NCBI GenBank assembly: GCA_016699045.1
Contig: CP064957.1
Location: 537,784 to 601,783, forward strand
Reading direction: 5' to 3'
Length of the DNA stretch: 64,000 nt
Origin: a bacterium
Lineage (GTDB): Bacteria; Babelota; Babeliae; Babelales; RVW-14
The notes beneath the pieces are model-generated. The model ran no database searches and had not been told where the DNA came from. It saw nothing but the letters and a program-made list of their open reading frames with translations. Position numbers and translations under genes: made by a program. Positions 12,194 through 27,763 of this stretch are shown here, one piece after another. Each line of letters begins with the position of its first letter. Position 1 is the stretch's first letter.

Positions 12194-13249
12194 TCATGCT
12201 AAATGCTCTTCAACAAAATCCGTTCTAACATTAACTCCTGCTTGATAATATTTCTTTAACCATTCATAAATTTTGGCAATCCCTTGATCGCAAGAAATTT
12301 TTGGATTAAAACCTAACAATGCTTCTGAGCGGGTGTTATCTGAAATAAACATAAGCTGGTCGCCAGGCCGCCAATTATCAAATGAATACTGAATCTTATC
12401 GCCAGCCAAACCTTTTAAGACATCAAAAAATTCTAGTAAAGACAATGAGTTTTGTTGCCCACCGCCCATATTAAAAGCAAGTCCCTGAACTTTTTCTGCA
12501 TTCATGATAGCCAGTTCATAAAAATCAACCAGATCTGAAACATACAAAACATCGCGTACTTGCTTGCCATTTCCATAAATAGTAATTGGTTTTTTTTCAA
12601 GATGCGCAATAATAAACCACGCTATCCAGCCCTGGTCTTCAACACCAAACTGATGTGGGCCATAAATACATGACTGCCTAACAGTAATAGCTTTAAGCCC
12701 ATAAATACGAGCATAATCTAACGTATACTGATCGGCAGTACCTTTTGAACAGCCGTACGGAGAAAAAAATTCAAGCGGCTGCTCCTCACTAACACCTTTG
12801 TACAAAGGATTAGGAGAACGGTAACGCGAGGTATCTTCAATTAAATGTTGTTCTGCAATTTTACCGTAAACCTTATTAGTTGAAGCATTAATAAAAACAG
12901 CATGCGGCGAAAATAAGCGTACACATTCCAAAACATTAAAAGTTCCAAGCGCATTAACATAAAAATCATGCCGCGGATCCTGAACCGATAACGTTACCGC
13001 AACTTGAGCGGCCAAATGAATAACTGCATCAAACGTATGTACTTTAAAATATTTCTCTAAATTTTCACGATCAGTAATATCAAGCTGTAAAAAATTAAAT
13101 AAAAGATTTTCACGCATCCAACGAATATTAATTAATGCCGTTTGCCGTGAAAGATTATCAATAACAAAAACCTCATGTCCTTGCTCTGCAAAATGCTTTA
13201 CCACATTGCAACCTATAAAACCCGCTCCACCAGTTACTAAAATTTTCAT
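12194..13249 (-). CDS. NAD-dependent epimerase/dehydratase (extended SDR, CDP-paratose/tyvelose 2-epimerase-like)
   Basis: 351 aa. [13 protein letters not shown] Rossmann motif and catalytic YGCSK (YxxxK). Confidence 0.8.
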   Translation of the reverse strand: MKILVTGGAGFIGCNVVKHFAEQGHEVFVIDNLSRQTALINIRWMRENLLFNFLQLDITDRENLEKYFKVHTFDAVIHLAAQVAVTLSVQDPRHDFYVNALGTFNVLECVRLFSPHAVFINASTNKVYGKIAEQHLIEDTSRYRSPNPLYKGVSEEQPLEFFSPYGCSKGTADQYTLDYARIYGLKAITVRQSCIYGPHQFGVEDQGWIAWFIIAHLEKKPITIYGNGKQVRDVLYVSDLVDFYELAIMNAEKVQGLAFNMGGGQQNSLSLLEFFDVLKGLAGDKIQYSFDNWRPGDQLMFISDNTRSEALLGFNPKISCDQGIAKIYEWLKKYYQAGVNVRTDFVEEHLA

Positions 13250-13251
13250 TA

Positions 13252-14331
13252 CTACCCCTTAAACGCAAGCTTTTGATATGCCTTTGGTAATTCTTTAATC
13301 ACGGTATCAAAATTTTTATCGGCAACGCCTTGCAGTCCCAAATCCCACAAATAGCTGGCAAGCCCCGGGCTCTTGTGCAACACTCCCTGCATTTTGATCA
13401 TGGAAGTATAATAATGAAACCAGATTTCATCAGGCAATAAAGGCGCTTTGGCCCCACGCAAGCGCTGCAGCTTGGAGCGAACATAATGCCGTACTAGAAA
13501 GCGAATATTGTCAAAATCACGCAATACTTTTTGCATTCCTTGCGCTTTAAATTCTTGCATATTGATACGCGTAAGCGCACCACAATGTCCCTCTCCAACC
13601 ATGCGAGACATCCAAAATTCTTGTGTCAAGCGATAGGGAGGAATCACGTGCTCTACCACTATTTTTGGTGAATAAAAAATTTTATAGCCATGCGTTTTAC
13701 AGCGCTTACAAAAACCGTAATCACCAGGACCCACATATAATTTTTTAAAAGTCTTTTCAGCAATATTGGTCTCTACTCCCACCGTGTCTGGCGGAAAACC
13801 ACCAATTTCTTTGTATACGGACTTGCGAATTGCCATGATGGGGCCAGGTACCGCATCAACCTCTTTTTCTTGCTCCCCCAAATTGTACAGCGATAAACCG
13901 TTAAAACTATTTTGCAAATCAAGCACCCATTGCGGCGGCTCTTGCTCAAACCGTGGTAAAATTTTACCACCGGCAACAGCACAATCTGGATACTTATCAA
14001 AAATTTCTTCAATTGCCTCAAGCGTCCCTTGATGCACAATTACATCATCGTCAAGATAGACAATTATAGGGCCACGCGCATGTAAAGCCCCTGTGTGACG
14101 AGCTCGTGTAAACGATGTGTTGCCTTCAAAAACGTAACGAACTCGATCCCCATAACTTGTAACCAATTCTTTCGTCTGATCTTTTGAATTATTATCAACA
14201 ACAACTATTTCATAAGAAACCTTGCTAGCACCACTAAAGATACTTTCAAGGAGCCGCTTAAGAGATGCTGCTCGATTGTGCGTAGGAACTAACAGAGAAA
14301 TTTTTGGTTCAATCATGACAACCCTTTTCAC
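13252..14331 (-). CDS. GT2 family glycosyltransferase
   Basis: 359 aa. ISLLVPTHNRAASLKRLLESI, VVVDNNSKDQT, YLDDDV (DxD). Confidence 0.8.
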   Translation of the reverse strand: MKRVVMIEPKISLLVPTHNRAASLKRLLESIFSGASKVSYEIVVVDNNSKDQTKELVTSYGDRVRYVFEGNTSFTRARHTGALHARGPIIVYLDDDVIVHQGTLEAIEEIFDKYPDCAVAGGKILPRFEQEPPQWVLDLQNSFNGLSLYNLGEQEKEVDAVPGPIMAIRKSVYKEIGGFPPDTVGVETNIAEKTFKKLYVGPGDYGFCKRCKTHGYKIFYSPKIVVEHVIPPYRLTQEFWMSRMVGEGHCGALTRINMQEFKAQGMQKVLRDFDNIRFLVRHYVRSKLQRLRGAKAPLLPDEIWFHYYTSMIKMQGVLHKSPGLASYLWDLGLQGVADKNFDTVIKELPKAYQKLAFKG

Positions 14332-15764
14332 TTTTCAAAAATAATCAATTGACGCGTTTCTGGGTGAGATGGCAACAGCACCGCGTTCCTAAAAAATTTC
14401 TTTCCCTCTTCAAGTACTCGATCTATATTGTACGTTTTTAATGAATATTTAGACAAATGCTTAAAAAAATTAGGATCTGTTACAATCATTGAATCATCTA
14501 ATGCAACAAACTCAAGAACCAATGCCTTATGCGTTAGCATTGCCAGTATGGACAGAACATGTTCAAGTTTTTCATTCATGCCCAAAACAAGATGGTGCAA
14601 TAACCCAAGACACAACACAACATCAGATTGCAAGCGATCATGCGCTGGCAAAAAAAGCGGCGTTTTTTTAAATTCATCAGTTTGATAAACACTATCAGTT
14701 GGCACTGCACCAAAAGCAGAGCGTTGTAAATCTTTAAATGATAAAAAAAGTGGAAGAATATTTAGATTTTCTTGCTTGGCAAAACGATATAAAAAATCAA
14801 CACATGATTCATCGATATCAGTTGCAGTAACTTTGGCCCCAAGCTTTGCTGCTAAAATAGAAAACCAGCCAGTATTCGCACCCAAATCTAAAACACTTTT
14901 AGGCTTGTACTGCTGCAAAACCTGATAAACGCCCTTTTGCTTTTCTTTCCAATTAGTCTGATCATCAAAAGAAAAATTCTCTTTTTTTTCTTCATAATAG
15001 GCAACATAACTACCACTGCGCGAAGCAACCTCAAGCGCTTCGATAGACGCCAAAACATCGCGACAACAATCTTGAAAAGATTTGCGCTCAGCACAGGTAA
15101 GGGCATAATACAATCGGGCAGTCTGAAACGCCGTTTGTATCTTAGAACAGGCCCCTTGCATCCGAATCATATCGTGCCAAGTTGTTGAATGATTCCCTCT
15201 ATTACACGCATTGTGCCACAAGAGCTCTCGCGCACCTTTGTAATCTTTTCGACTCATAATAATTAATGGGAAAAGTATGTAAGGCAAAAACATTTTCTCA
15301 AAAATAATGTAATTAAATCCCTTATTTTGAGGATCTATTTCTTTGTACCACGCCTCTTTTACTCGATTTTCTTTTTTTATTATCGATAAAAAATCAATAA
15401 AGACAGGCTTGAAACCATTAAACACAATATTTTCAGGCAATGCATCTTTAAGAGTTAACCCATAAGTATCCAAATCAAGAAAAAGCTGCACGTGAAAGCG
15501 TGCAGCCTCTTTAAAAGCACTTACTGCCCACTCACTTGGATATGAGATAATATGTTTTTCGTGACTCAAAAAACCCTGCTGATCTGCTTGCTCTGTTCTT
15601 ACAATACCAATCTTTTCCAAATGATTTTTTTTATACTGCTTCAATAAATCTTGAGCTTCAGACCAATAAGTTTTATCAATTTCTCTTAAAATATGATCCT
15701 GAGCATCATACACTTTACCCTGCATATCATAACCAACAAGGCGCTTATTATTATGATTCAACAT
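14328..15764 (-). CDS. two-domain protein: kinase-like N-terminal domain fused to a class I SAM methyltransferase
   Basis: 478 aa. N-terminal domain has ISYPSEW ... LKDALPENIVF ... PVFIDFLS (D-x4-N and ID motifs). C-terminal domain has VLDLGANTGWFSILAAKLGAKVTATDID (motif I). Confidence 0.7.
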   Translation of the reverse strand: MLNHNNKRLVGYDMQGKVYDAQDHILREIDKTYWSEAQDLLKQYKKNHLEKIGIVRTEQADQQGFLSHEKHIISYPSEWAVSAFKEAARFHVQLFLDLDTYGLTLKDALPENIVFNGFKPVFIDFLSIIKKENRVKEAWYKEIDPQNKGFNYIIFEKMFLPYILFPLIIMSRKDYKGARELLWHNACNRGNHSTTWHDMIRMQGACSKIQTAFQTARLYYALTCAERKSFQDCCRDVLASIEALEVASRSGSYVAYYEEKKENFSFDDQTNWKEKQKGVYQVLQQYKPKSVLDLGANTGWFSILAAKLGAKVTATDIDESCVDFLYRFAKQENLNILPLFLSFKDLQRSAFGAVPTDSVYQTDEFKKTPLFLPAHDRLQSDVVLCLGLLHHLVLGMNEKLEHVLSILAMLTHKALVLEFVALDDSMIVTDPNFFKHLSKYSLKTYNIDRVLEEGKKFFRNAVLLPSHPETRQLIIFEK

Positions 15765-15939
15765 TATAAATACTCTAATACAGCTTAAGAGAACAACATG
15801 AAAACCATTTAAAACAGGAACAATTTTTTGAACTAGTCATATTACTACTCATTTGAAAATCACCATTCGATACATATTCATAACTACCAACATTACGCAT
15901 ATATAAAACAATATTTATCTGTAACCATATCTCCTTGTT

Positions 15940-17646
15940 TTAGAAATCAGGCCAACGATTTTGAGAAATAATGGGCAAATGATTAATAATGGAACCACAG
16001 ACATAATCAAACATCTTACTATTCCCAGGCATCAAAGCATCAGCTTTTGAAAAATTCAATATATTGTGACCAGTTAATGAATAATTAAAAAGATCAAATT
16101 TAATTGAATAAACAAAATGATATAAATATAAAAATTTCCATGCTTGTTGTTGATTATAAAGGCGCTCTTTAATAGATAGTGGATTATGAACTAAACGTTC
16201 TAATAAAGAAAAATATGCATCATAATTTTCAGGATCGTACGTAAACCCTTTTTGCGCATACGGCGCATGCCCAAGAGTAACAACAGGAACCCCAGCACAA
16301 GCCATTTCAATACCAAGAGTCGTAGTAAAAACAAGTCCGGCAGTAATATAATCAAATAAATCATACGCCTGAATATTGGTATCTGGTCTTAAACAAATAA
16401 TATTACTTGTTAAATTCAAACCAATACAAAAATCATACATACCTTGCCTTGTTATAGGAAAATATTTATTCCATTCACCAGGATGAACTTTGAGAATTAA
16501 ATTGAAATTTGGCTTTGTTTTAAAAAAAGTAATTACCTTTTCTAGCCATACAGGCATAGCTCCAAAAGATGAGGGGGATTCAAGTGCTGCAGCATCCCAT
16601 ATAATATTAATTGGCAACAAAAATGTCGGCTTAGAAAAATCGATATGACTCAATGATTGCTGAACTACTTTTACCACACAAGAAGCTGGATTTGCCGTAT
16701 TAACATTCATATTAATACCAGTTTTTCCATTCTTTAAATATGCCGTGACTAAAGCCTTTTGAGCATCAGAAAGATCTCTATTTTTCCAAGTTAACCAAAT
16801 ATCAGAAAAATCAGTTGGCACAACATCCGCATTAAAATTGTAACACCAAGTATTACGCACATAACCTATTGTTGAATTAAAATAAGGAATTTTTTTTCGA
16901 GCTGCTATGATTTTGATAATAGACCAAGGATAATAAAAACTTCCATTTGAATAAATCACATCAGGACTAATATCGTCGAATGCTTTTTTTAAAGCTTCAA
17001 TCATCAAAATAATATTAAATAAATATGACTTTAATTTTTTTTTATAATCGTTAACACACTGAATATCACCAACAAGTTCATTATTTTTAATAATATCTAC
17101 AATCCATTTGCCAACAGGCATAGAATCATAAAGCCAATGTTCATAATCAGCAATGTCATAACTTTCACAAAGTTGACGAGTATCACATTTTTGAGTTTCT
17201 AAAATATAGTTACGTAATTCAAATGGAACAACATCCAACCACTGCAACCATAGTTCATTATCTGCATCTTGGATAATCTTATTATTCTTGTGAAATTGCT
17301 CTTTATCTCTAACCGGATCATCGATATAACTACCCCAAATGCCACCAAAAAGACTTGTCTCTCCCTCTTGAATCCCACCCTCAATCAAAGAAACGATTTT
17401 GGCTCCACGTAATTTCAGGGCCTGCGCAAGCATCCAATCATGAATGCGATTAACTTCACAAACAGAAAAAGAGAGCGCAAATAAAATTCTTTGTCGTTTT
17501 AAATCAGATGGCATGCTACTTACTAAAATATCAATCTGTTGATTAATTTTTTGAATTTTGTTTCGTAATTCATTACGCTTGCGCATACGTAAAAATTGTC
17601 GCAGGTGATTTTTTACTTTAATTAAAGTATTTTTTACTTCAAACAT
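15940..17646 (-). CDS. Capsule_synth-family (KpsS/KpsC-like) polysaccharide biosynthesis protein
   Basis: 568 aa. LILKVHPGEW and TTTLGIEMACAGVPVVTLGHAPYAQKGFTYD resemble the KpsS/KpsC (beta-Kdo transferase) C-terminal core as I recall it. Confidence 0.55.
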   Translation of the reverse strand: MFEVKNTLIKVKNHLRQFLRMRKRNELRNKIQKINQQIDILVSSMPSDLKRQRILFALSFSVCEVNRIHDWMLAQALKLRGAKIVSLIEGGIQEGETSLFGGIWGSYIDDPVRDKEQFHKNNKIIQDADNELWLQWLDVVPFELRNYILETQKCDTRQLCESYDIADYEHWLYDSMPVGKWIVDIIKNNELVGDIQCVNDYKKKLKSYLFNIILMIEALKKAFDDISPDVIYSNGSFYYPWSIIKIIAARKKIPYFNSTIGYVRNTWCYNFNADVVPTDFSDIWLTWKNRDLSDAQKALVTAYLKNGKTGINMNVNTANPASCVVKVVQQSLSHIDFSKPTFLLPINIIWDAAALESPSSFGAMPVWLEKVITFFKTKPNFNLILKVHPGEWNKYFPITRQGMYDFCIGLNLTSNIICLRPDTNIQAYDLFDYITAGLVFTTTLGIEMACAGVPVVTLGHAPYAQKGFTYDPENYDAYFSLLERLVHNPLSIKERLYNQQQAWKFLYLYHFVYSIKFDLFNYSLTGHNILNFSKADALMPGNSKMFDYVCGSIINHLPIISQNRWPDF

Positions 17647-17669
17647 TACTCTCTTACCAACTTTTTTTA

Positions 17670-19333
17670 TTACAAATCAAACAACATACACCATTTTTCA
17701 ACTAAGGCATCACTCATCACAAAGTCACGCCCTGCAACAATGCTATCACAAATAAAATCAATAAAATCATTTTTTCCAGGTAAGAGGAGCGAAGCCTGAT
17801 CAAATCTAAAATAACGATTTTGTGAGTATTCCAAAACTTCAAAAGGAATTTGTCGCTGTAAAAAGAAAGAATATGCATACTGACGAGCTAAATCTCTTGC
17901 TCGCTCAGCAAGTAAAGGCAACTGAGCGGCAGATTTTAAATAAGCACGATACTCTTCCTTAGTTGATGCATCATGAGTAAAACCCTTTTGCGCATAATGA
18001 GCCTGTCCGGCAAGGATCACTGGCTTACCCATCAATGAGATTTCAAGCCCTGCGGTACCACAAACAGTCACGGCCCCATCAATAAGTTGATAAAAATTTA
18101 AAGGACTTACCTCATCATGCATAGAAATTATTTTTACATGCTCTGGCAATGACGGAAAATTTTGCTTAATAAATTGTTCAAGCCCGCTGTATGGATTTTC
18201 CCAAGATTCAGCGGGATGAATTTTTATCAACCACGTTACGTCAGGAACCGCAGCAATATGAACTACCGTATCAAAAATCCATTCATTAAAAGTAGCGTAA
18301 GGCATTGGAACATAATCCCCAACATTGTCCCAATTAATATGACAAAAAATACCCCACACAGGTTTATTGCTCGTTATTTTGTAACGGTCTTTTAGAGCTT
18401 GAATATCATCTTGATAAATGCCAAATGATTTCATATCAAAACTAATTTGCTTCTTGTAACGATTTGATAAAAATTTATCAAGACGTTTCTTTTCAATCTC
18501 TAATAAAGGAACAGATTTTCTTTGTTCCCATGCATTGCAACTTATACTATAAAAATCAATAGGCTCTGAGTTAATATGCTTAAAATAAAATTGATAAAGC
18601 ATGTAAGACGACATCCAGGCAGTAACAGAAATATTTTTTGCCAATGCATTATGTAAAGCAGGCCCCAATCAATGTACGTTCCATGTGACATAAATAACTG
18701 GTTTGGCTTATAACTGTCTATTGCGGCATAAGAAGCTGCAGCAACCAGCAACCCTGCATACGTATAATCCAACAAAACATCATCTCTATCCTTAATATCA
18801 TGCCCGCGTGAATAGCGAATTAAAGCTGATGAAATATTTTTTCCAATATTAACACCCTTGAATGTCAACGAATCTAACGAATCCCAAGTCACCATATGAG
18901 CCTGCTTTAAAAGCTCAACACGATCTTGTTGAGTAATAAAATCCCCAACAAATGAATACGGCAGCCCTAGTATATCCAAAAAAGAAGCACAGGGTTCCTT
19001 GCAATTAGAACATTTTTTTTCTTTTTTCGAACATTGATAGTCTTGCTGTACTTCACGTCTCACGCATGCTGGCAAAGTTCCATCGCAAATAACCAACTGA
19101 ACATTAAAACCTCGAAGCCGAAGAGCAAGGGCAACTGCTCCTTCAATATTAAGTAAAATAGACATCCCACCAGTCACCCAAAAAAGAATTTTAGGAGCTG
19201 TTGTTTTTATCGGGACAGCTAAAGGATTTTTAAAAAGATTTTTTACCTGATTTCGCTTAAATTTTGCTTGTTGATAATCATGCAAAAAAACAGATGCTCT
19301 CTTCTTTAATCCCAAAACTTTTTTCAAAATCAT
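17670..19333 (-). pseudogene. Capsule_synth-family paralog interrupted by a frameshift at a G4 run (or sequencing error)
   Basis: ORFs 18542-19333 and 17670-18668 overlap in different frames and together align along the 568-aa neighbour. One extra G at 18663-18666 joins ...SHGTYIDWG to PALHNALAKNISVTAW. Motifs WLIKIHPAESW and GTAGLEISLMGKPVILAGQAHYAQKGFTHD. Confidence 0.55.
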
Positions 19334-20739
19334 AAACCAATCTCGGCGTGATCAAGTTTACTATTTCTTGCTTTTTTAAGCGTTGGATAGGTTGACACCG
19401 GCAACAAACCTAATGAAACAAGATGATTAATAAAAGTAAATAAGTGTAAATCCTGATACCGACGAGTCACAAGCTGCACACCAAAAGGCATTCCTGATGG
19501 CGCCCTAAAAACAGGCGCACTCACTGCAGGTACATACGTCATCGTCCACATAAGCGCAGGATCTGGTAATTCTATCTCATGACGCAAAGGAGCTTGGCCT
19601 GCCGTACTGAGCGAAACAAGTACATCATAATCGTTAAAAACATCATCAACTAAACAAACCATATCTCGCTGATCTGCTAATGCCTGGTGATAATCTTTGA
19701 CGGTGATAATCAACCCATCTTCTATCAGCTCAGCCATTCTTTCAGATACCAATTCTTTTTGCTTAAACTCTTCTTGGAAATAATACGCAAGCGATTTGTT
19801 ATAAATTATTCGATGCACATCGTGAGCATTATTCACTTGTTCAGGCATTGTAACTTCTTCAACTTCAACACCATCAGCTCCTGCAAGTTTTTGCACCCAA
19901 TCAATCATAGATTTTTGTGCATAATCATAAGCGTAATCCCACGTATGGCTACGCACAAAACCCACCCGCCATGGTTTTTTACGCGAACCTTCAGGCAAAG
20001 AATAATTATCCAATGCTGCATGAATAAAAGGATAATCTTTACCAGAAACTCTGAGAACATTTAAAGCATGGGCCAAATCTTGTACATGACTAACAAAAAA
20101 ACCAACAGAATCCAACGTGTCCGTCGTCTTTAAAATACCTGTACGCGGAATAAGCCCAAACGATGGCTTAACACCATACACGCCACAAAAGCTTGCCGGC
20201 CTTACTATGGAACCTGCTGTCTGCGTACCCAACGCAACGGGAAGCATCCCGGTTGCCACTGCAACAGCAGAACCACTCGAAGATGTTCCTGGAGAAAAGG
20301 CAGCATCGTGAGGATTAGTGGTTTCACTCAGCGCATGAACACCAAATTCAGCTGATGATGTCTTTCCGGGCATAATACCACCCGCACGCTCAACATGATA
20401 CACAACACGCGCGTCATTGCCAGGACAAAATCCTTGCCATAAAGCACTGCCCATTTGTGTCTGAAAATACTTGGTGTTAATAATATCCTTAATCCCAACC
20501 GGAATTCCTTCAAGCGCCCTAAGCTGCCCTTTTTGAATATTTTCTCGCGCTAACAGCGCTTTTTGTAAAAAATATTCAGCATCAAAATGTTCCCACGCAT
20601 TAAAGATCATGTCAGAATTTTGGACAAAGCGAATCATTGATTCGGCAACAAAAACAGGATCTAACATCTTTTTGCGATAAGCCTGTAAAGTTTGCTGAAT
20701 ACTATAATCTAAAAAAAAGCCATGTTGCATTGTAACCAC
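19330..20739 (-). CDS. amidase-signature family enzyme (GatA-like amidase)
   Basis: 469 aa. GIPVGIKDII (catalytic Lys region) and PGTSSSGSAVAVATG (Ser-cisSer signature). Start uncertain: GTG at 20739 or ATG at 20730. Confidence 0.85.
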   Translation of the reverse strand: MVTMQHGFFLDYSIQQTLQAYRKKMLDPVFVAESMIRFVQNSDMIFNAWEHFDAEYFLQKALLARENIQKGQLRALEGIPVGIKDIINTKYFQTQMGSALWQGFCPGNDARVVYHVERAGGIMPGKTSSAEFGVHALSETTNPHDAAFSPGTSSSGSAVAVATGMLPVALGTQTAGSIVRPASFCGVYGVKPSFGLIPRTGILKTTDTLDSVGFFVSHVQDLAHALNVLRVSGKDYPFIHAALDNYSLPEGSRKKPWRVGFVRSHTWDYAYDYAQKSMIDWVQKLAGADGVEVEEVTMPEQVNNAHDVHRIIYNKSLAYYFQEEFKQKELVSERMAELIEDGLIITVKDYHQALADQRDMVCLVDDVFNDYDVLVSLSTAGQAPLRHEIELPDPALMWTMTYVPAVSAPVFRAPSGMPFGVQLVTRRYQDLHLFTFINHLVSLGLLPVSTYPTLKKARNSKLDHAEIGL

Positions 20740-20744
20740 CCAAT

Positions 20745-21935
20745 CTAAAGATTTTCTTTGTTGGTTTTTTCAATTAATTCTTCAACAAAAGGCTTAACAG
20801 ATTTTCGTTGTTCTTTACTTTTAAAATTAATTGGCATTGCAATTTTACCAAGTTTTTTTAAACGATGACCTTCCATAATTTTATGAAATTCATCTTCCGT
20901 TAAACCAGTAATTTTTAAATAATAATCAAGCGCATCAGGCCTCATTGAATCATGTTTTTTTGCTAATTCAAAGCCCTCTTCACGCGTCAACAAACCGGCG
21001 CGCACATCAACACTCGCATGAAATGTTCCTCGACCATAGCCACGCTTGAGATAGCAGGTAAAGTCATGCACACCCGGCATAATGCACTCAGCACTTTTAT
21101 AACGTTTATAGGTACCATCAATGTTCGTTTCTTTCCAGGCATAGTTATCACGTACAAACTCCATTTGGCGCTCATCATCCCAAAAAATATAGTCGCCCAA
21201 ATGAATGCCATGAACGCCCACCTTCAAACATTCCTCTGGTGTGGGATTTTTGAATGGTGCAAGATCTTTCATAGTCAAATAATCACAGACCATTTCTTCA
21301 GGCTTACGCTTAGCAGAAACAGCGAGGAAATAATCTTTATCAAATTGCAAACGCTTACATTTGTACGATGCTCGCCCAGACGACTCAGATATTGACTCGC
21401 CCCAAATAAGTAAAGGAATTTTGTAAGCCACAGCAACTTGCAAAGGAAATGCTCCAACGCCGGCATGACAATGCCAACAAGCATCCCCAATAGCCTCAAG
21501 AGAGCGGCGAGCGGTACGATTTACTAAGTTTCGGTTTGGCGTAAACATAATGTGATCAACATTAAATTTCTCAAGTGAATTCAAAAGATTGTACATTCCC
21601 GTGCCACTAAACCAATTATGGCTAAACGTCACCGCCAAAGGCTTCATCCCATAAACTTTAGTAAGTACATGTAGCTGAAAGGTACTGTCTTTCCCGCCAC
21701 TAATGGGAATAATACAATCGTAGTTATCACCAGATTTTGCTTTTGCATCGTCCAATATCGCCCTTAAATCTTTTTCGCGTTCAGCCCAATTAATATGCAT
21801 TTTTTCTTCAGAAGAACGACAAGCCTGGCAAATACCCATCTCATCAAAATCAACTCCTTCTTGAGTTTCGGGAATGCAACAACGAATACAATATTGTAAA
21901 TCTTGAAAAGGAGTCGTGTTTTTTTGATCGTTCAT
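20745..21935 (-). CDS. N-acetyl sugar amidotransferase (WbuX/WbpG/PseA-type PP-loop ATP pyrophosphatase)
   Basis: 396 aa. N-terminal zinc-ribbon cysteines CIRCCIPE...GICQACRS followed by the PP-loop IPISGGKDSTFQLHVL. Confidence 0.8.
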   Translation of the reverse strand: MNDQKNTTPFQDLQYCIRCCIPETQEGVDFDEMGICQACRSSEEKMHINWAEREKDLRAILDDAKAKSGDNYDCIIPISGGKDSTFQLHVLTKVYGMKPLAVTFSHNWFSGTGMYNLLNSLEKFNVDHIMFTPNRNLVNRTARRSLEAIGDACWHCHAGVGAFPLQVAVAYKIPLLIWGESISESSGRASYKCKRLQFDKDYFLAVSAKRKPEEMVCDYLTMKDLAPFKNPTPEECLKVGVHGIHLGDYIFWDDERQMEFVRDNYAWKETNIDGTYKRYKSAECIMPGVHDFTCYLKRGYGRGTFHASVDVRAGLLTREEGFELAKKHDSMRPDALDYYLKITGLTEDEFHKIMEGHRLKKLGKIAMPINFKSKEQRKSVKPFVEELIEKTNKENL

Positions 21936-21947
21936 AATGTTTTCTTT

Positions 21948-22529
21948 CTAAAAAACGGTAGAGCTTTGTACTGCAGGTTGATGAAATTTCGCAAGAAATT
22001 CTTCACGAAGTACGCCATAATCTATAATATCGACAAACTGCCCATGCTTAAACAAGGCCTGTCGACGAATCCCTTCTTCTTTCATCATCATATAACAAGC
22101 CAATTTTTGCATAGCAATATTATTAACAGATGTTCCACAGTAAATTCTATGTAAATTAAGTTCCAAAAAAGTATGCTTTAGTAACATAATCGAAGCTTCT
22201 TTGGAATAACCTTTCCCCCAAGAACTCTTATCACCCAAAATAATTGCATACTCAGCATTGCGGCTAATATAATTAATGTTTTGAATAGCAATATTACCAA
22301 TATGTTTATCATTATCTTTGCGAACAATAGCACAGACTAAAAAAGCTGGATTAGCCATTACTAAATCAAAATAAGTTTGCGCAGCCTTTTTTCCATACGG
22401 AAAAATATGATGCGAATTAAAGCGACACACATCAGGATCATTCAGCCAAGAAACATAATCGCCTTCTAGATCCTGCTCACAAAGACCCCGTAAATAAATA
22501 TTTTCACCAATTAAAAAAGGCACTTTCAT
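21948..22529 (-). CDS. GNAT family N-acetyltransferase (RimJ/RimL-like; PseH-like role possible)
   Basis: 193 aa. IGNIAIQNINYISRNAEYAIILGDKSSWGKGYSKEA is typical of the GNAT acetyl-CoA region. ATGA overlap with the upstream aminotransferase. Confidence 0.75.
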   Translation of the reverse strand: MKVPFLIGENIYLRGLCEQDLEGDYVSWLNDPDVCRFNSHHIFPYGKKAAQTYFDLVMANPAFLVCAIVRKDNDKHIGNIAIQNINYISRNAEYAIILGDKSSWGKGYSKEASIMLLKHTFLELNLHRIYCGTSVNNIAMQKLACYMMMKEEGIRRQALFKHGQFVDIIDYGVLREEFLAKFHQPAVQSSTVF

Positions 22530-23872
22530 AATACTTTTCTATTCTCCCAAACCTTTTCAAAAGCTCTCACTACATCATCCAAATCATGCGTAGTCATGCC
22601 GGGCCGCATCAGTTCATGAATAATCAACTCATGCTCATGCATGCGTTCTGTTACGGGACAAATACCCTGAGCATAAGAAACTTCTGAGCCCTGCGCTTGT
22701 AAACTCCACGGATAATGCGAAGTCCCGTAGACCTGTTTTTTTTGGTAAATCGATTGCAAATAAAGCGGCTTAACATAGCCACCATTAATTTTAACGCCTT
22801 CAGTCTCCCGCCACTCCGTCACTTCCAGCTCAGCTTTTATTGCGTTAACAAAGGTATTACGAGAAACGCCTGCAATCTGTTCATTAAATTTTATGGCATG
22901 AAGATAATAGGCATGAGTAGAATCTTGGCGAACTTTTGGCATCGTTAAAGCCGGAATAGCCGCAAGTCTTTTTTCTAAATACGCAACATTTTCAACACGT
23001 GTCTCAACAAGCGTATTCAAGCGTTTAAGCAAAACAAGTCCTATGGCTGCTTGCATTTCAGTTAAACGATAATTAAAACCAATCATATTGGTAAAATGCG
23101 CATCTCCTTTTGCATCAATAACAGCTTCAGCATGATTACGAATAAGTCGCAATCGCTCGGCCAATTCGTCGTTATCAGTTACCACTACGCCACCCTCGCC
23201 AGTATGAATATGTTTGTGATAATTAAGAGAATAAATACCCATATCACCCAACGTACCCGCACTTTTATTTTTATAAAAAGCGCCAGGCGCTTGCGCACAA
23301 TCTTCAATAACAAGCAGTTTATGGCGTCGCGCAAGTTCATTAATTGCTTGCACATCGTAAGGCAACCCAAAAAGGTCAACGATCAGAATTGCCTTTGTGC
23401 GCGGCGTAATACGTTGCTCAATCGATGCAACATCAAGACAAAAATAATCTTTTTCTATATCAGCAAAAACAGGAATAGCATGATACACGAGAGGCGCTAC
23501 CGCTGAGGCAGACATACTAAACGGCGTTACAATAATTTCGTCGCCAGGCTCAATGCCTGCCGCCCCAACAGCTGCATACAAACCAGAGGTTGCTGAATTA
23601 ACTGCTATGGCATGCTTTACACCAAAATAATGAGCCCAGGCTTCTTCAAAAGCACGTACCTGCGGACCTCCATAAAAATCTTGATGCCATGCGCCAAGAT
23701 AGCGAGACAATACGCCTGATCGCAAAACCTGCGATACCGCAAGTTCAACCTCGTGATCAACCACCTGATAAGGAGGAAATTTTTTTGTTCGAATTTTTGA
23801 ACCACCATGAATTGCAAGTGGCGACAAAGCCTTACTCGGCTTTATTTTTGGTAATGTTTGAACGTCATTCAT
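22526..23872 (-). CDS. DegT/DnrJ/EryC1/StrS-family PLP-dependent sugar aminotransferase (PseC-like role possible)
   Basis: 448 aa. PLP-lysine context YSLNYHKHIHTGEGG. Also AINSATSGLYAA and IIVTPFSM. Confidence 0.85.
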   Translation of the reverse strand: MNDVQTLPKIKPSKALSPLAIHGGSKIRTKKFPPYQVVDHEVELAVSQVLRSGVLSRYLGAWHQDFYGGPQVRAFEEAWAHYFGVKHAIAVNSATSGLYAAVGAAGIEPGDEIIVTPFSMSASAVAPLVYHAIPVFADIEKDYFCLDVASIEQRITPRTKAILIVDLFGLPYDVQAINELARRHKLLVIEDCAQAPGAFYKNKSAGTLGDMGIYSLNYHKHIHTGEGGVVVTDNDELAERLRLIRNHAEAVIDAKGDAHFTNMIGFNYRLTEMQAAIGLVLLKRLNTLVETRVENVAYLEKRLAAIPALTMPKVRQDSTHAYYLHAIKFNEQIAGVSRNTFVNAIKAELEVTEWRETEGVKINGGYVKPLYLQSIYQKKQVYGTSHYPWSLQAQGSEVSYAQGICPVTERMHEHELIIHELMRPGMTTHDLDDVVRAFEKVWENRKVL

Positions 23873-25008
23873 CTCTCATCTCTCCCCAGATCAACGAATC
23901 TATAACGCGCACAACATGCGCCGTTGCTTGCTGGATAACTGAAAACTCAGTCTCCGGCATGGTTCGATGCATGATCACTTCTTGTAATGTAGCGAATAAT
24001 TCATTTTTATCCAAGACCGTTTTTATAAAACCACGACGAGAGAGAATAAACTGATCGGGAATTTTTAAGCCTATTTGTACACTCAAGATAGGAATATTCA
24101 ATAAAATTGCTTCCAATAAAAACATGGAAGACATACCACAAACTAAATCTGATATCAGCATAGCTTCTACCCCTGAAAGGGTATTTTTCGATAACTATTT
24201 TAAGCAAAGAAATTTTATGAGATGCAATTATATTTTGATAATACACAAGATCTTCTTTAGGATGCGGCCGTACCACCAGAATAATTTTTTTTTGAGAAAG
24301 TTGCACAATAGCTGTTAATGATTCAATTAAGGCCTGTAAGATTGTTTGTTCGGTATAACCAAGATAATTATTATCTTTAAAAATAAGAGAAAAAGGCTCA
24401 GAGGCAAAGGTAATTAACATATCAATATCGCCATACAAAGATTTTTTTAATGCCAAAATTTTATCAATCGATAACATATTTTTGCGCACTTGCACAAAAT
24501 CAAAGTATGGTTGGCCAGTAACAACCACCCGATCCCCAGCAATCCCTTCAAGAAGTGTTTGCTCACGGGCATAATCATCCATAACACAAATTCTTGTCGG
24601 CACAAATGCATGCGTTTTATCAACCTTATAAGCGTCAATTTTATCAACCCCGTAGGCCGAAAAACGAATGCCATAATTCATCCATTGGTCAAGGATTGCA
24701 CAAGAAGGAATAGAAAGCTGTTCACTTGCTCGCCAAAGATATTTTTCAGTTTTATCAGTCGCGCTAGTTCCTGTCACCACAACGGCTGGCTGCAATGCAT
24801 ATAAAAAATCAGTTATTTTTTCTTGAGTACTATCATCAATAACAGACGTTATATCGTGCCCTTGGTAGCCAAATTCTCGATACCGCTTAAGCGCCATGTT
24901 TTTGCCAAAAAGTACTACGTCATATTTTTTTTTCAAAAAATCGATTAATGGTATGATTGTGTTGGCACCACCTGGATCATGAGCAAACAGAAGTATTTTT
25001 TTTTGCAT
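23865..25008 (-). pseudogene. GT-B/MurG-like protein, candidate PseG-type UDP-sugar hydrolase, interrupted by a frameshift (or sequencing error)
   Basis: ORF 24007-25026 has a sensible N-terminus (MQKKILLFAHDPGGANTIIPL from the ATG at 25008) but a junk-like tail. Overlapping ORF 23865-24161 encodes a GT-B C-terminal segment, MLISDLVCGMSSMFLLEAILLNIPILSV. Removing one base in 24170-24188 (C4 or T5 run) joins the frames. Confidence 0.5.
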
Positions 25009-25960
25009 GACTATCATCCTGTTCACAAAACTTCATTACAATCAACGCATCATCAAGCGTGCAGTACAATGGCTGCCTACCAACCAAAAATTGCGCACTA
25101 TTGTCAGCCGCATAATATAAAGCCTGATCAAGTGACGACGAGTACTGGTGTTTTAATACAAGATTCGAATATCCTTGAAAAATGACACTCCGTTCAACAG
25201 CGTACTCTTCAATGGTAAAGCCACTATTCAAAATACGCAGCCGCCCTTTTTCAAACAACAAATCAATTTCAAAAATAGTAAATAAACGACAATCAACAGG
25301 CTGCAAAAAAAATGGGGCATCGTAATGCTCGAAATGCACCGTACCCACAATACTGGGATCATCGTCATAATAATCAAAAATTTTTTGCACAGACTTAACA
25401 GCACTCATCTCACCCAAAAAAAATCGCATAAAATCAAGCATATGCGAGCCGTTATGCAATAAGCCTTTGCCATAATAGCCAGTACCGGTAACAAAACGAC
25501 CAAAGTCCCCATGCTGGACCCGCTCACGAAGTTTATGAAAATCAGGAACAAAGCGACGAGAATAATTTACCAAAACAGGAATCCCCGCTTGCTCATACAA
25601 CTGTTTAATATGGCCTGCCTGCTCGAGCGTTTTCGTTAATGGCTTTTCAGCAAAAACAAGTTTAATTGAATAGCGTAAGAGTTGTTTAAGTATGTCATAA
25701 TGCGTCGAGTCTGGCGTTGCAACACAAACAATATCAATGGCACTTTGCAAAAATGCCTGCTCAATTGAAACAAATGCCCGACCTCCCCAACGCTGCGCAG
25801 CATCAGCAGCAGCAGCAGAATCAGCATCAACAAAACCAACTAACTCAAAAGCAGGATGTTTAGAAAATGCGTGTGCATGCGTAAGAACACGATGATCATG
25901 AGGAGTATCAAAAAAAGCACCAATTCTTCCCGCCCCAATAATTAAAACGTTATAATTCAT
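24977..25960 (-). CDS. Gfo/Idh/MocA-family NAD(P)-dependent oxidoreductase
   Basis: 327 aa. MNYNVLIIGAGRIGA Rossmann motif and the family EKP motif (FAEKPLTKT). Confidence 0.85.
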   Translation of the reverse strand: MNYNVLIIGAGRIGAFFDTPHDHRVLTHAHAFSKHPAFELVGFVDADSAAAADAAQRWGGRAFVSIEQAFLQSAIDIVCVATPDSTHYDILKQLLRYSIKLVFAEKPLTKTLEQAGHIKQLYEQAGIPVLVNYSRRFVPDFHKLRERVQHGDFGRFVTGTGYYGKGLLHNGSHMLDFMRFFLGEMSAVKSVQKIFDYYDDDPSIVGTVHFEHYDAPFFLQPVDCRLFTIFEIDLLFEKGRLRILNSGFTIEEYAVERSVIFQGYSNLVLKHQYSSSLDQALYYAADNSAQFLVGRQPLYCTLDDALIVMKFCEQDDSHAKKNTSVCS

Positions 25961-25964
25961 TTAA

Positions 25965-26666
25965 TTAAACAAGATTATTAATAACTTTATATTTTAATTC
26001 TGCAATTTTCCAATCTTCAAGTGAATCAATATCTTGTACCTCAAGCTCAGAAAGCTTAAGAGCCAAGGTATTTTTTGCAAACAACTGTTTTTGCTCCAGA
26101 AGACTTTGTGATTTCATAAAATAAAATTGGCCGCAATCATGATAAACAGGCTCGAGATCTTGCGAACGTTTATTATAATTTTCTGGCCACAACATACTTA
26201 GTTTGTCATCATCAACACGGACAGCTCGTTGAACCGGATAGCTAAAACGGACAACAGGGACAATTGAATCAACATTTGCATTAATGAGCATACTAAAACC
26301 TTCTTGCAAGCGTTGGGCTGAAACAAAAGGTGCGGTTGGCAAAATACAACAAAAATAGGTAAAAAATTTCCCCTGCTTTTGATACTCCAACAAAACTTCT
26401 TCTATAACATCCGCCAACATTGCATGATCATTGGCATTAGAATCAGAGCGAACAAAAGGAACCCGCGCCCCCTCTTGTTGCGCAATAGCTGCAATTTCGG
26501 CATCATCGGTCGAAACCATAACCTCATCAAAACAACCTGCCTGCAAAGCTGCTTGAATTGAATAGCTTATAATTGGCTTACCAAGAAAAGATTTTATATT
26601 CTTTCTTGGAATACGCTTACTCCCGCCACGAGCAGGAATAATTGCTACACATGAGTTCTCATTCAT
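25965..26666 (-). CDS. CMP-nonulosonic acid synthetase (acylneuraminate cytidylyltransferase family; PseF/NeuA-like)
   Basis: AIIPARGGSKRIPRKNIK motif. Start placed at MNENSCVAIIPARG (ATG 26664-26666, 6 nt after AAAGGA). The ORF-track start at 26684 is also possible. Confidence 0.85.
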   Translation of the reverse strand: MNENSCVAIIPARGGSKRIPRKNIKSFLGKPIISYSIQAALQAGCFDEVMVSTDDAEIAAIAQQEGARVPFVRSDSNANDHAMLADVIEEVLLEYQKQGKFFTYFCCILPTAPFVSAQRLQEGFSMLINANVDSIVPVVRFSYPVQRAVRVDDDKLSMLWPENYNKRSQDLEPVYHDCGQFYFMKSQSLLEQKQLFAKNTLALKLSELEVQDIDSLEDWKIAELKYKVINNLV

Positions 26667-26689
26667 CGAAAATCCTTTAATCATTTTTC

Positions 26690-27763
26690 TTATAAATCTG
26701 AGCGCAATAAACTATCTCCACAGACCTTGGCTACTTTTAAAGATTTTCCTAAGATAGTATCTTTTTCCCATGGAAAAAATGCATTAAGTGGCGCAGGTCG
26801 CAAGTATTCAATATCATGCTCGGTCACTGTTTCACCAACCGCCATATCACGGTTGAGGCGAATAGCACGGCGTTGTAAAACTACTGAGTCTTGTTCGTTC
26901 AACTCAACACGCTTAATACCATCACCAAGTGCGTTTTCTAATTCCCGGGTTCTATTAACCATATCGCGCCATGCCACTGGATTCATGGAAAATAAATGAT
27001 CAGGGCCAATTCTGTTATTATCATCAGTAAAATGTTTTTCAATAACGCGCGCACCCAATGCTACCGCACCAAGAACTGTTGCATGGCCAGGCGTATGATC
27101 AGAAAGGCCTAAAATCATTTCAGGAAAATACTGTGCATACGTTTTCAGAACATTAAGATTGATATACTTAAAATTTTCCAAAGAAGCCGTATAGTTAGTA
27201 TTGCACTGCATCAAAACTATTTTCTGATTATACGTTATAACAGCTTGGACAGCTCGTTCAACTTCTTGCATACAAGAAGCACCGGTAGCCAGAAAAACAG
27301 GCTTGTTTTTTTTCGCAATAGTTTCAATAAAATGCGTCCAGGTAACATCCCCAGATCCAATTTTAAACGCTGGCGCGTAGGCATCCCATAAATCTACCGC
27401 TTGGTAATCATAAGGCGCAGTAAAAATAGTTATTTTCGCTTCATGAGCAGTTTTTACCAGCTCTTCTGTCCATTCTCGACGACATTCATTATCCTGATAC
27501 GTTTCATAAACAGTTTTTTTCCACGTTGCTTGATGACTAAGCTGCCTTCCTAAAGTTTTAAAACCATAATCACTCACAATGCCATCTGCTATAAAATGTT
27601 GAAATTTTGCAACATCTGCACCTGCTTCTTTTGCTAAGTAAATTAAATCTTTGGCTCGAGAAATATCCCCATCATGATTTGCCGCAATATCAGCTATAAA
27701 ATAGGTAGGAGCTGTCGCCGAAATTTCTCGATCATCAACAAAAAACTTATTTTCATAATTCAT
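26690..27763 (-). CDS. nonulosonic acid synthase (NeuB family; PseI/LegI/NeuB-like) with C-terminal SAF domain
   Basis: Start placed at MNYENKFFVDD. Motifs FIADIAANHDGD, KFQHF, GLSDHT, and the C-terminal SAF-like RRAIRLNRDMAVGETVTEHDIEYLRP. Confidence 0.9.
   Translation of the reverse strand: MNYENKFFVDDREISATAPTYFIADIAANHDGDISRAKDLIYLAKEAGADVAKFQHFIADGIVSDYGFKTLGRQLSHQATWKKTVYETYQDNECRREWTEELVKTAHEAKITIFTAPYDYQAVDLWDAYAPAFKIGSGDVTWTHFIETIAKKNKPVFLATGASCMQEVERAVQAVITYNQKIVLMQCNTNYTASLENFKYINLNVLKTYAQYFPEMILGLSDHTPGHATVLGAVALGARVIEKHFTDDNNRIGPDHLFSMNPVAWRDMVNRTRELENALGDGIKRVELNEQDSVVLQRRAIRLNRDMAVGETVTEHDIEYLRPAPLNAFFPWEKDTILGKSLKVAKVCGDSLLRSDL

Follow-up and report, generated by a model that had tools for sequence, protein, structure and literature searches.

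In the 64,000-nucleotide stretch of bacterial DNA analysed here (the window), a gene for a WbuX/PseA-type PP-loop N-acetyl-sugar amidotransferase (NASAT) of 396 amino acids (20745..21935) is followed on the minus strand by a gene for an amidase-signature enzyme resembling malonamidase E2 (MAE2) (19330..20739). The genome is a single contig of 1.45 Mb and is 95% complete; I take the source organism to be a host-dependent protist parasite, probably of the Babeliales (Dependentiae). A first-pass annotation had called the upstream gene product a WbuX/WbpG/PseA-type enzyme, and this was borne out by a TIGR03573 match of 327.3 bits (curated cut-off 203.2), which was the same in the genome scan. The ORF has no Pfam match, and the solved NASAT 8WEX aligned with it at 146 bits. 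It was found that both motifs defined for NASAT/WbuX in PMC10607449, the SGGxDS PP-loop and the CxxC...CxxC Zn site, are present, as SGGKDS at residues 79-84 and as a Zn-type tetracysteine (C16/C19/C36/C39) that is invariant across 64 diverse family members. The C-terminal tail, KPFVEELIEK, is clade-specific.

The downstream gene product had been described as a complete amidase-signature enzyme with the Lys and Ser-cisSer motifs. This was correct: it matched PF01425 (Amidase) with 216.6 bits (gathering threshold 27), and its triad, K84/cis-S153/S177, aligns with K62, S131 and S155 of MAE2. The triad is at least 97% invariant in 120 cluster representatives and is among the 100 of 469 positions conserved to that degree. 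Judged from this alignment, the enzyme is under strong constraint. The length of 469 residues is counted from a GTG start, which leaves the gap of 5 nt to the WbuX gene that had been given for the operon. The start is more likely the ATG at 20730, preceded at 6 nt by a Shine-Dalgarno-like GGTGG; the gap would then be 14 nt and the protein 466 residues long, as in the database copy.

Is this enzyme a relative of GatA, to which it had been likened? The likeness stands at the superfamily level, but the closest relative is MAE2, and the score against GatA (TIGR00132, 179.6 bits) lies far below the cut-off of 481.1. The enzyme is in fact below all NCBIfam equivalog cut-offs. In phmmer, S. aureus GatA aligned only with the N-terminal half (residues 13-302, 126 bits), and MAE2 gave a full-length alignment of 198 bits. 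Among solved structures, MAE2 is the nearest by sequence as well as by fold (TM 0.83, normalised to the target), and the GGS-I/V-R-P arginine is kept (R158 in MAE2, R180 here). Many residues invariant in the amidase clade differ from MAE2 (e.g., H135, R199, K204, H306, Y313, and E324). Thus, the substrate may well not be malonamate. Since the enzyme is nearest to MAE2 and far below the GatA cut-off, homology lends no support to glutamine as the donor. GatA has specific glutamine-binding residues in its C-terminal half; they were kept out of the evidence, since that half aligns unreliably here. The housekeeping GatA-like gene of this genome is a different one and lies at another site.

The pair is embedded in a glycan locus encoded on the minus strand. 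Upstream of WbuX lie a PseH-like GNAT N-acetyltransferase gene (21948..22529; PF13302 70 bits, weak PseH match), which belongs to a conserved cassette and is syntenic in L003, L005, and L009-L029, a DegT/PseC-like PLP aminotransferase gene (22526..23872; PF01041 303 bits; PseC 227 bits, below the cut-off; syntenic), a PseG-like GT-B gene of surface carbohydrate biosynthesis (23865..25026; weak TIGR04396 match), the GFO/IDH/MocA oxidoreductase gene of the cassette (24977..25960; PF01408 83 bits; syntenic), a PseF/NeuA-like CMP-nonulosonate cytidylyltransferase gene (25965..26684; PF02348 97 bits), and a NeuB-family nonulosonate synthase gene (26690..27787; PF03102 232 bits). The region 27753..30470 encodes an RmlD-like reductase (PF04321), a xylose-isomerase-like TIM barrel (PF01261), and a PseB/FlaA1-like 4,6-dehydratase (PF02719, 342 bits), which are assigned by these matches to early steps of the nonulosonate pathway. 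Downstream, the amidase stop codon overlaps with the start (ATGA) of a Capsule_synth (KpsS/KpsC)-like gene (17670..19333; PF05159), which encodes a candidate nonulosonate transferase. The downstream part of the locus (12194..17646), syntenic in Dependentiae loci with either type of WbuX partner, comprises Pfam-assigned genes for a second Capsule_synth paralog (15940-17646), a methyltransferase-domain protein (14328-15764), a GT2 (13252-14331), and an epimerase/dehydratase (12194-13249). PIG-L-type de-N-acetylases are present as separate genes in some clusters that carry WbuX and the amidase.

Two genes of the locus are frameshifted in the present assembly. The PseG-like gene is split into overlapping ORFs (24007-25026 and 23865-24161) and is intact, encoding 381-382 amino acids, in the same-genus L009 and L086. 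In the Capsule_synth-like gene, a 1-nt indel at a G4 run near 18662 breaks the frame; the counterpart of this gene is a single ORF of 556-569 amino acids in L009 and L003 and follows the amidase gene in most relatives. Thus, the pathway may be decaying in this genome. On the other hand, sequencing errors may account for the frameshifts, because they fall in homopolymer runs, the assembly is a single contig, and same-genus relatives have the genes intact. The WbuX and amidase ORFs are both intact, with 97% and 82% identity, respectively, to a same-genus genome. A scan for promoters and terminators gave no clear enrichment, promoter-like sites being fewer than in shuffles and terminator-like sites only modestly above them (24 versus a mean of 16.3, sd 3.7).

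Partners of WbuX in other genomes

The first-pass annotation had noted that HisH/HisF genes are missing from the window and had proposed a genome-wide search for wbuY/wbuZ-like genes. Profile searches agreed for the window and found no HisH or HisF/WbuZ gene in the whole genome, so the usual adjacency of NASAT/WbuX to these genes is lacking here. TIGR01855 had zero matches in the genome. A 27-bit match to TIGR03572 was rejected as WbuZ; it is the TIM barrel of a Dus tRNA-dihydrouridine synthase. HisH/HisF genes above the cut-off were also absent from 21 other genomes with the WbuX-amidase pair.

Is this arrangement common? In a random sample of 802 Pseudomonadota and Bacteroidota genomes, 118 WbuX genes were found, and partners were scored within 5 kb. 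As the first-pass annotation had stated, HisH/HisF are the usual neighbours (100/118, 85%); an amidase accompanied two WbuX genes, 16 (about 14%) had neither, and none had both. The 51 WbuX ORFs of Pseudomonadota were linked to HisH/HisF in 41 cases, to an amidase in one, to neither in nine, and to both in none, the corresponding numbers for the 67 Bacteroidota ORFs being 59, one, seven, and none. Amidase and HisH/HisF were not found together in any of 148 WbuX loci.

About 30 loci have an amidase gene adjacent to WbuX; they come from at least 7 phyla and one archaeon and include Aquicultor, Bacteroidota, Ignavibacteria, Acidovorax, Selenomonadales, Vampirovibrio, and the cultured Variovorax terrae. 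In an amidase-seeded search, every locus with upstream DNA had WbuX as the immediate upstream neighbour in the same orientation, no more than 23 nt away (L018 was left out of this score, since its contig ends there). All 30 amidase-linked WbuX sequences, to which the present one belongs, fall into a single clade (SH-aLRT 100) nested within the HisH/HisF-linked WbuX sequences. The clade has no partnerless or HisH/HisF-linked members, and one partner change suffices on the WbuX tree. A C-terminal tail motif, ER-I/V-LP-F/Y-xxQL-I/V-EK, is present in 28 of the 30 and only in amidase-adjacent WbuX. The neighbourhood statistics, which had been suggested as a check, define the amidase as a rare but recurrent alternative to HisH/HisF that is mutually exclusive with them and tied to one WbuX clade.

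In two Dependentiae loci (L081 and L082), WbuX-HisH-HisF genes occupy the slot held here by the WbuX-amidase pair. The flanks are the same, with the CMP-transferase gene on one side and the Capsule_synth/MT/GT2/epimerase genes on the other. In a distance-matrix (mirror-tree) comparison, the correlation was r = 0.92 for WbuX and the amidase and r = 0.90 for WbuX and DegT. Since the former is no better than the latter, the correlation reflects co-inheritance of the cassette and not specific co-adaptation.

Fused proteins and predicted structure

An exhaustive search of representatives revealed natural fusions. One protein of 874 amino acids consists of WbuX and the amidase with both motif sets intact, while others have the order WbuX-WbuX′-amidase (1150-1181 amino acids) or WbuX′-amidase (803 amino acids). 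The canonical system has a parallel fusion, HisF-WbuX, in L060. An apparent 1321-aa ORF in L030 was rejected; it is a chance upstream extension, and the upstream gene lies in another frame. Together with the strict adjacency of the separate genes, the fusions support a complex of WbuX and the amidase. An AlphaFold2 model of the natural fusion had confident domains; since the linker (385-418) is disordered and the pTM is 0.66, it contains no confident WbuX-amidase interface.

A putative ammonia supplier for WbuX

These genomic patterns suggest that the amidase has probably replaced WbuY/WbuZ as the dedicated NH3 supplier of WbuX, the two forming a two-component acetamidino-sugar amidotransferase. 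The amidase would hydrolyse the carboxamide of a small donor and release NH3, with Ser177 as the nucleophile and cis-Ser153/Lys84 as the relay. Glutamine is the default guess for the donor, while asparagine or another carboxy-amide is possible. The NH3 would be passed to the neighbouring WbuX, presumably inside a complex. The PP-loop of WbuX would adenylate the carbonyl oxygen of an N-acetyl group on the CMP-activated nonulosonic acid of the locus, of the pseudaminic/legionaminic type, and the NH3 would displace AMP to leave an acetamidino group. The downstream Capsule_synth-like enzymes may then transfer the product to a surface glycan, and N-methylation is possible. The first-pass annotation had pictured a GatA-like amidase feeding NH3 to the PP-loop enzyme; the genome search, the neighbourhood statistics, and the natural fusions all favour the two-component pairing, but sequence evidence does not support the GatA/glutamine part, the nearest relative being MAE2. 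A fuller reading, which I favour with less assurance, is that the amidase is a dedicated and physically coupled NH3 subunit of a PP-loop sugar amidotransferase, and that this arrangement had a single origin, in which HisH/HisF were displaced, followed by horizontal spread among bacteria and archaea.

Could the amidase be a tailoring hydrolase instead, which removes a nonulosonate N-acyl group or cleaves the amidine or another amide, and which is co-inherited with WbuX via a sugar-specific pathway? Amidase-signature enzymes cleave very diverse amides, the nearest homologue, MAE2, belongs to no amidotransferase, co-inheritance with WbuX is about as tight for DegT, GNAT, and GFO as it is for the amidase, and the AlphaFold2 interface is not confident. 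Such a role would leave unexplained why HisH/HisF are lacking precisely at the loci that have the amidase (0/148 loci with both), why WbuX-HisH-HisF genes take the same slot in related Dependentiae loci, and why the amidase has repeatedly been fused to WbuX specifically. In addition, some clusters already have PIG-L-type de-N-acetylases as separate genes. A tailoring role thus seems unlikely, and the fallback of the first-pass annotation, trimming of a glycan amide, is disfavoured. It may also be that WbuX uses free ammonia and needs no more from the amidase than accessory help, regulation, or a non-essential boost, the pair perhaps being inactive in a decaying locus with two frameshift-split genes. 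Since 16 of the 118 sampled WbuX genes are partnerless within 5 kb and deletion of M. maripaludis MMP1082, co-transcribed with a WbpG homologue, caused no visible flagellin defect (PMC2952790), the ammonia supplier may be dispensable. However, the WbuX and amidase genes are intact and strongly conserved here, the triad and the PP-loop are invariant, the homopolymer frameshifts may be sequencing errors, and the fusions argue for tight physical coupling. The use of free ammonia is therefore rather improbable as well.

The chemistry might be different altogether. ClbL, an amidase-signature enzyme that forms bonds instead of hydrolysing them (PMC10478638), is among the fold matches of the amidase, and nonulosonates with unusual substituted acetimidoyl groups have been described (SugarBase preprint). 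An acyl-enzyme transferase like ClbL could deliver a substituted nitrogen or an acyl group, resulting in a substituted amidine or an N-acyl variant, and the many clade-specific invariant residues unlike those of MAE2 would fit. Nevertheless, none of the family motifs is lost in this WbuX, which branches within ordinary HisH/HisF-linked WbuX, and a glutaminase pair would most simply be replaced by another ammonia generator. I regard such a transferase as very improbable.

Relation to known amidotransferases

The WbuXYZ-type systems, which include E. coli O145 WbuXYZ, P. aeruginosa WbpG with HisH2/HisF2, C. jejuni PseA and PtmG, M. maripaludis MMP1081-1083, and Legionella LpNASAT (PDB 8WEX), share with the present locus the TIGR03573 synthetase, the PP-loop, the Zn-tetracysteine, and the nonulosonate/glycan locus context. 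The NASAT chemistry, in which ATP and NH3 are used to turn an N-acetyl into an acetamidino group (PMC10607449), would be expected of the present WbuX, too. In contrast to these systems, one amidase-signature protein stands here in the position of the HisH-like glutaminase and the HisF-like barrel, and the present WbuX falls into a clade apart, marked by a C-terminal tail of its own. To my knowledge, GatA of GatCAB is the only established amidase-signature enzyme that serves as the NH3-generating subunit of an amidotransferase. GatA and the present amidase have their fold and Ser-cisSer-Lys triad in common, whereas the latter is not a GatA orthologue, and in place of GatB, which acts on tRNA, its predicted acceptor is a PP-loop ATP pyrophosphatase with a sugar substrate. 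MAE2, the Bradyrhizobium japonicum enzyme of PDB 1OBI/1OCL, is a free-standing catabolic hydrolase; it shares the triad and the GGS-I/V-R-P Arg but differs at many clade-invariant residues. In the glutamine-dependent GMP synthetase, asparagine synthetase B, and NAD+ synthetase NadE, a PP-loop adenylating domain is fed NH3 by a dedicated amide hydrolase that is fused to the synthetase domain or encoded beside it. The logic of a PP-loop synthetase with a dedicated amide hydrolase is the same, but those enzymes use glutaminases of the class I triad, Ntn, or nitrilase type, and the partner here is of the amidase-signature type. NadE has been compared with NASAT in PMC10607449. Literature searches found no paper on the WbuX-amidase pair or on an amidase-signature partner for any PP-loop enzyme, and no amidotransferase candidate was offered in the T. 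forsythia papers on Pse5Am7Gra.

If the amidase does supply NH3 to WbuX, it would be the second known amidase-signature 'glutaminase' of an amidotransferase after that of GatCAB and the first with a PP-loop synthetase. Such a widespread second ammonia-supply module would be a new architecture among amidotransferases and a clean natural case of non-orthologous displacement, in which a glutaminase/channel pair gave way to a single protein. Hundreds of genes now labelled 'amidase / GatA family' would have this generic label corrected, and it would become clear how a host-dependent parasite without the hisH and hisF genes of the histidine pathway can make an amidino sugar. Nonulosonic acids on flagella, S-layers, capsules, and LPS are negatively charged; acetamidino groups neutralise this charge and affect motility, phage recognition, and host interaction. 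I know of genetic studies on the nitrogen supply of an acetamidino amidotransferase only for the HisH/HisF-type system. Variovorax terrae, a cultured bacterium carrying the pair, makes the idea open to direct test. Instead of glutamine, the malonamidase-like pocket may accept some other amide as the donor. Finally, a word search with the N-terminal part of one fusion (P0122) matched P0122 alone; its domain has a degenerate PP-loop, and the recurrent degenerate WbuX′ domain may be a scaffold or conduit.

The WbuX and amidase genes of a nonulosonic-acid operon

A long minus-strand operon, at about 12.2–32.8 kb of the window, codes for a nonulosonic-acid pathway and contains the WbuX-amidase pair. 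The operon encodes a PseB-like dehydratase, a xylose-isomerase-like TIM barrel, an RmlD-like reductase, a NeuB synthase, a CMP-transferase, a GFO/IDH/MocA oxidoreductase, a PseG-like protein, a DegT aminotransferase and a GNAT protein, then WbuX and the amidase, and after the amidase two Capsule_synth-like proteins, a methyltransferase, a GT2 glycosyltransferase and an epimerase. The gap between WbuX and the amidase is 5 nt if the amidase starts at a GTG codon. More probably, the amidase starts at the ATG codon at 20730, with GGTGG ahead of it, and the gap is then 14 nt. The start codon of the next gene overlaps with the amidase stop codon.

The ORF at 20745–21935 (minus strand) matches TIGR03573 (WbuX, N-acetyl sugar amidotransferase) with 327 bits (cut-off, 203) and contains the PP-loop (SGGKDS) and the four family-invariant cysteines. 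It also matches the Legionella NASAT (8WEX), the sole solved structure of the family, in which the cysteines bind zinc and the PP-loop was proposed to turn ATP into AMP and PPi (PMC10607449). The ammonia source was not discussed in that structure paper. The ORF at 19330–20739 (minus strand) encodes a protein of the amidase-signature family (PF01425, 217 bits), and its Lys84/cis-Ser153/Ser177 triad is intact. Thus, the profile matches and intact motifs confirmed the first-pass annotation of a complete amidase next to a PP-loop enzyme. The same annotation placed the amidase in the GatA family, which holds only at the superfamily level, and the protein is closer to malonamidase E2 (MAE2). It scores far under every NCBIfam equivalog cut-off (GatA, 180 versus 481 bits). 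By sequence, the best solved relative is MAE2 (198 bits over the full length), while GatA gives 126 bits in the N-terminal half only. MAE2 is also the top fold match (TM 0.83, normalised to the target), followed by AtzE and then GatA. The amidase subfamily is under tight constraint, with 100 of 469 positions at least 97% invariant among 120 cluster representatives, and many of its clade-specific invariant residues differ in MAE2.

Two genes of the locus are frameshifted in this assembly. The Capsule_synth-like gene 3′ of the amidase (17670–19333) is read as two overlapping ORFs due to a 1-nt difference at a G4 run around 18662, while it is a single ORF of 556 aa in a same-genus locus (L009). 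The split may reflect a homopolymer sequencing error, a real pseudogene or a phase-variable site. The PseG-like gene (23865–25026) is broken into two ORFs (339 aa and 98 aa), and is unbroken (381–382 aa) in L009 and another same-genus locus, L086.

Distribution of the two partner types

WbuX was said in the first-pass annotation to be usually encoded beside HisH- and HisF-like proteins. For unbiased sampling, TIGR03573 was searched in 401 Pseudomonadota and 401 Bacteroidota genomes chosen without reference to the amidase, and the genes in the 6–7 kb to either side of each match above the cut-off were scored with iterated profiles. Among 51 WbuX ORFs of Pseudomonadota, 41 have HisH/HisF within 5 kb, one has an amidase, and nine have neither; the corresponding numbers for the 67 ORFs of Bacteroidota are 59, one and seven. 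Several of the "neither" cases lie at contig ends. No WbuX ORF in the two samples has both partner types. HisH/HisF thus lie near 85% of the sampled WbuX genes, in agreement with the annotation, whereas about 2% are paired with the amidase. In the phylum to which the window belongs, WbuX was found in nine of 261 genomes, with the amidase in four (the genome of the window, two congeneric ones and one of a different family), HisH/HisF in three and neither in two.

The genome of the window is a single contig of 1.45 Mb with 95% completeness, and its nearest protein relatives are annotated as Candidatus Babeliales (phylum Dependentiae). HisH/HisF-like partners elsewhere in this genome had been named as evidence against an amidase-fed enzyme. 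They were looked for with TIGR01855 (HisH) and TIGR03572 (HisF/WbuZ), and none was found: TIGR01855 has no match, and the single TIGR03572 match (27 bits) was rejected as a Dus tRNA-dihydrouridine synthase. The Dus gene adjoins a separate housekeeping GatA-like amidase gene, which is kept at C1:1352360–1353433.

On a maximum-likelihood tree of 143 WbuX domains, all 30 amidase-linked sequences form a single clade (SH-aLRT 100) nested among HisH/HisF-linked sequences. The partner label requires just one change on this tree, and no partnerless or HisH/HisF-linked WbuX lies inside the clade. Seeding from the amidase side yielded 21 loci from species-representative genomes. One of these (L018) is cut at a contig end; in every locus with upstream DNA, the gene directly upstream of the amidase is WbuX, in the same orientation and separated from it by at most 23 nt. 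No WbuZ scored above the cut-off in any of the 21 genomes. In L050, the basal member of the clade, the amidase gene is two genes from WbuX in the same operon.

The most telling comparison is with two other Dependentiae loci, L081 and L082. They share the CMP-transferase, Capsule_synth-like, methyltransferase, GT2 and epimerase genes with the window (identity up to 65%), and WbuX-HisH-HisF occupies the slot held by WbuX-amidase in the window. The partner module has been displaced, at the same position, by a non-orthologous one.

WbuX directly upstream of the amidase was also found in Aquicultor (Actinomycetota), in Bacteroidota, in a Logan metagenome and in the cultured Variovorax terrae, in which the hypothesis could conveniently be tested. 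In the V. terrae locus (JALGBI010000001.1, 2907313–2926599), WbuX and the amidase overlap by 4 nt; next to them are a nonulosonate cluster in divergent orientation and a gene for an AsnB-type amidotransferase.

Fusion proteins and a clade-specific tail

A search through all 1.8 billion cluster representatives turned up several natural fusions. A WbuX-amidase fusion of 874 aa (P0126) has the PP-loop, the tetracysteine set and the triad all intact. P0123 and P0124 (1150–1181 aa) are WbuX-WbuX′-amidase fusions, where WbuX′ is a WbuX-domain duplicate with a degenerate PP-loop, and truncated versions of both kinds were also found. P0122 (803 aa) is a WbuX′-amidase with a separate WbuX encoded alongside, P0129 and P0130 are WbuX′-WbuX fusions, and P0365 (652 aa) contains WbuX and is followed by an amidase gene. 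WbuX′ recurs in P0122, P0123, P0124, P0129, P0130, L006 (9001–11412) and L147 (6001–7959), with SGGKDS replaced by, for example, TGTAEN, TGSPAN or DGTYEN. The fusion partner of WbuX′ is either the amidase or an intact WbuX. WbuX′ may serve the amidase-type system as a scaffold without catalytic activity. In parallel, the canonical system has a HisF-WbuX fusion of 805 aa in a Pseudomonadota genome (L060, 604–3018), which supports the idea of a physical coupling between the HisF-like protein and WbuX.

The amidase-adjacent WbuX sequences keep a C-terminal tail, ER-I/V-LP-F/Y-xxQL-I/V-EK (KPFVEELIEK in the window), which was found neither in HisH/HisF-linked WbuX nor in L050. In the WbuX-amidase fusion, the tail stands directly before the linker. 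The tail is a candidate docking element. The AlphaFold2 model of the natural fusion, built on a checked alignment, has confident domains (mean pLDDT 84), a disordered linker (385–418) and a pTM of 0.66, and its interface is not confidently predicted.

The probable role of the amidase

Amidases of this family normally release ammonia from a small amide. It is rather likely that the pair works as a two-component amidotransferase, with the PP-loop enzyme receiving its ammonia from the amidase. Instead, the amidase could be a sugar-directed tailoring hydrolase, WbuX could use ammonia with the amidase as a dispensable helper, or the pair could perform a different chemistry. Pairwise distances of WbuX correlate about as well with those of DegT (r = 0.90) as with those of the amidase (r = 0.92), which shows co-inheritance of the cassette only. 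The mutual exclusivity of the partners, the in-situ replacement and the fusions fit all three of these alternatives less well than the supply of ammonia by the amidase.

According to a review of the Methanococcus maripaludis system, deletion of the WbpG homologue MMP1081 resulted in the loss of the acetamidino group; smaller flagellins were also observed upon deletion of MMP1083 but not of MMP1082 (PMC2952790). Amidination at the CMP-sugar stage is supported by the SugarBase preprint. No paper describing the WbuX-amidase pairing was found in full-text literature searches. Against the published record, the amidotransferase is of a known kind and its pairing with an amidase is a new variant.

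The two Capsule_synth (KpsS/KpsC-like) paralogs after the amidase (15940–19333) are candidate CMP-nonulosonate transferases, since in Dependentiae they are conserved 3′ of HisH/HisF (L081 and L082) as well as of the amidase. Methyltransferases also recur fused to or beside WbuX with both partner types (P0144, 600 aa; L050, 6109–6981; window, 14328–15764). They are reminiscent of PtmH/ORF8, which N-methylate acetimidoyl legionaminic acid, and by analogy the methyltransferase-domain protein of the window (478 aa) may perform the same N-methylation.
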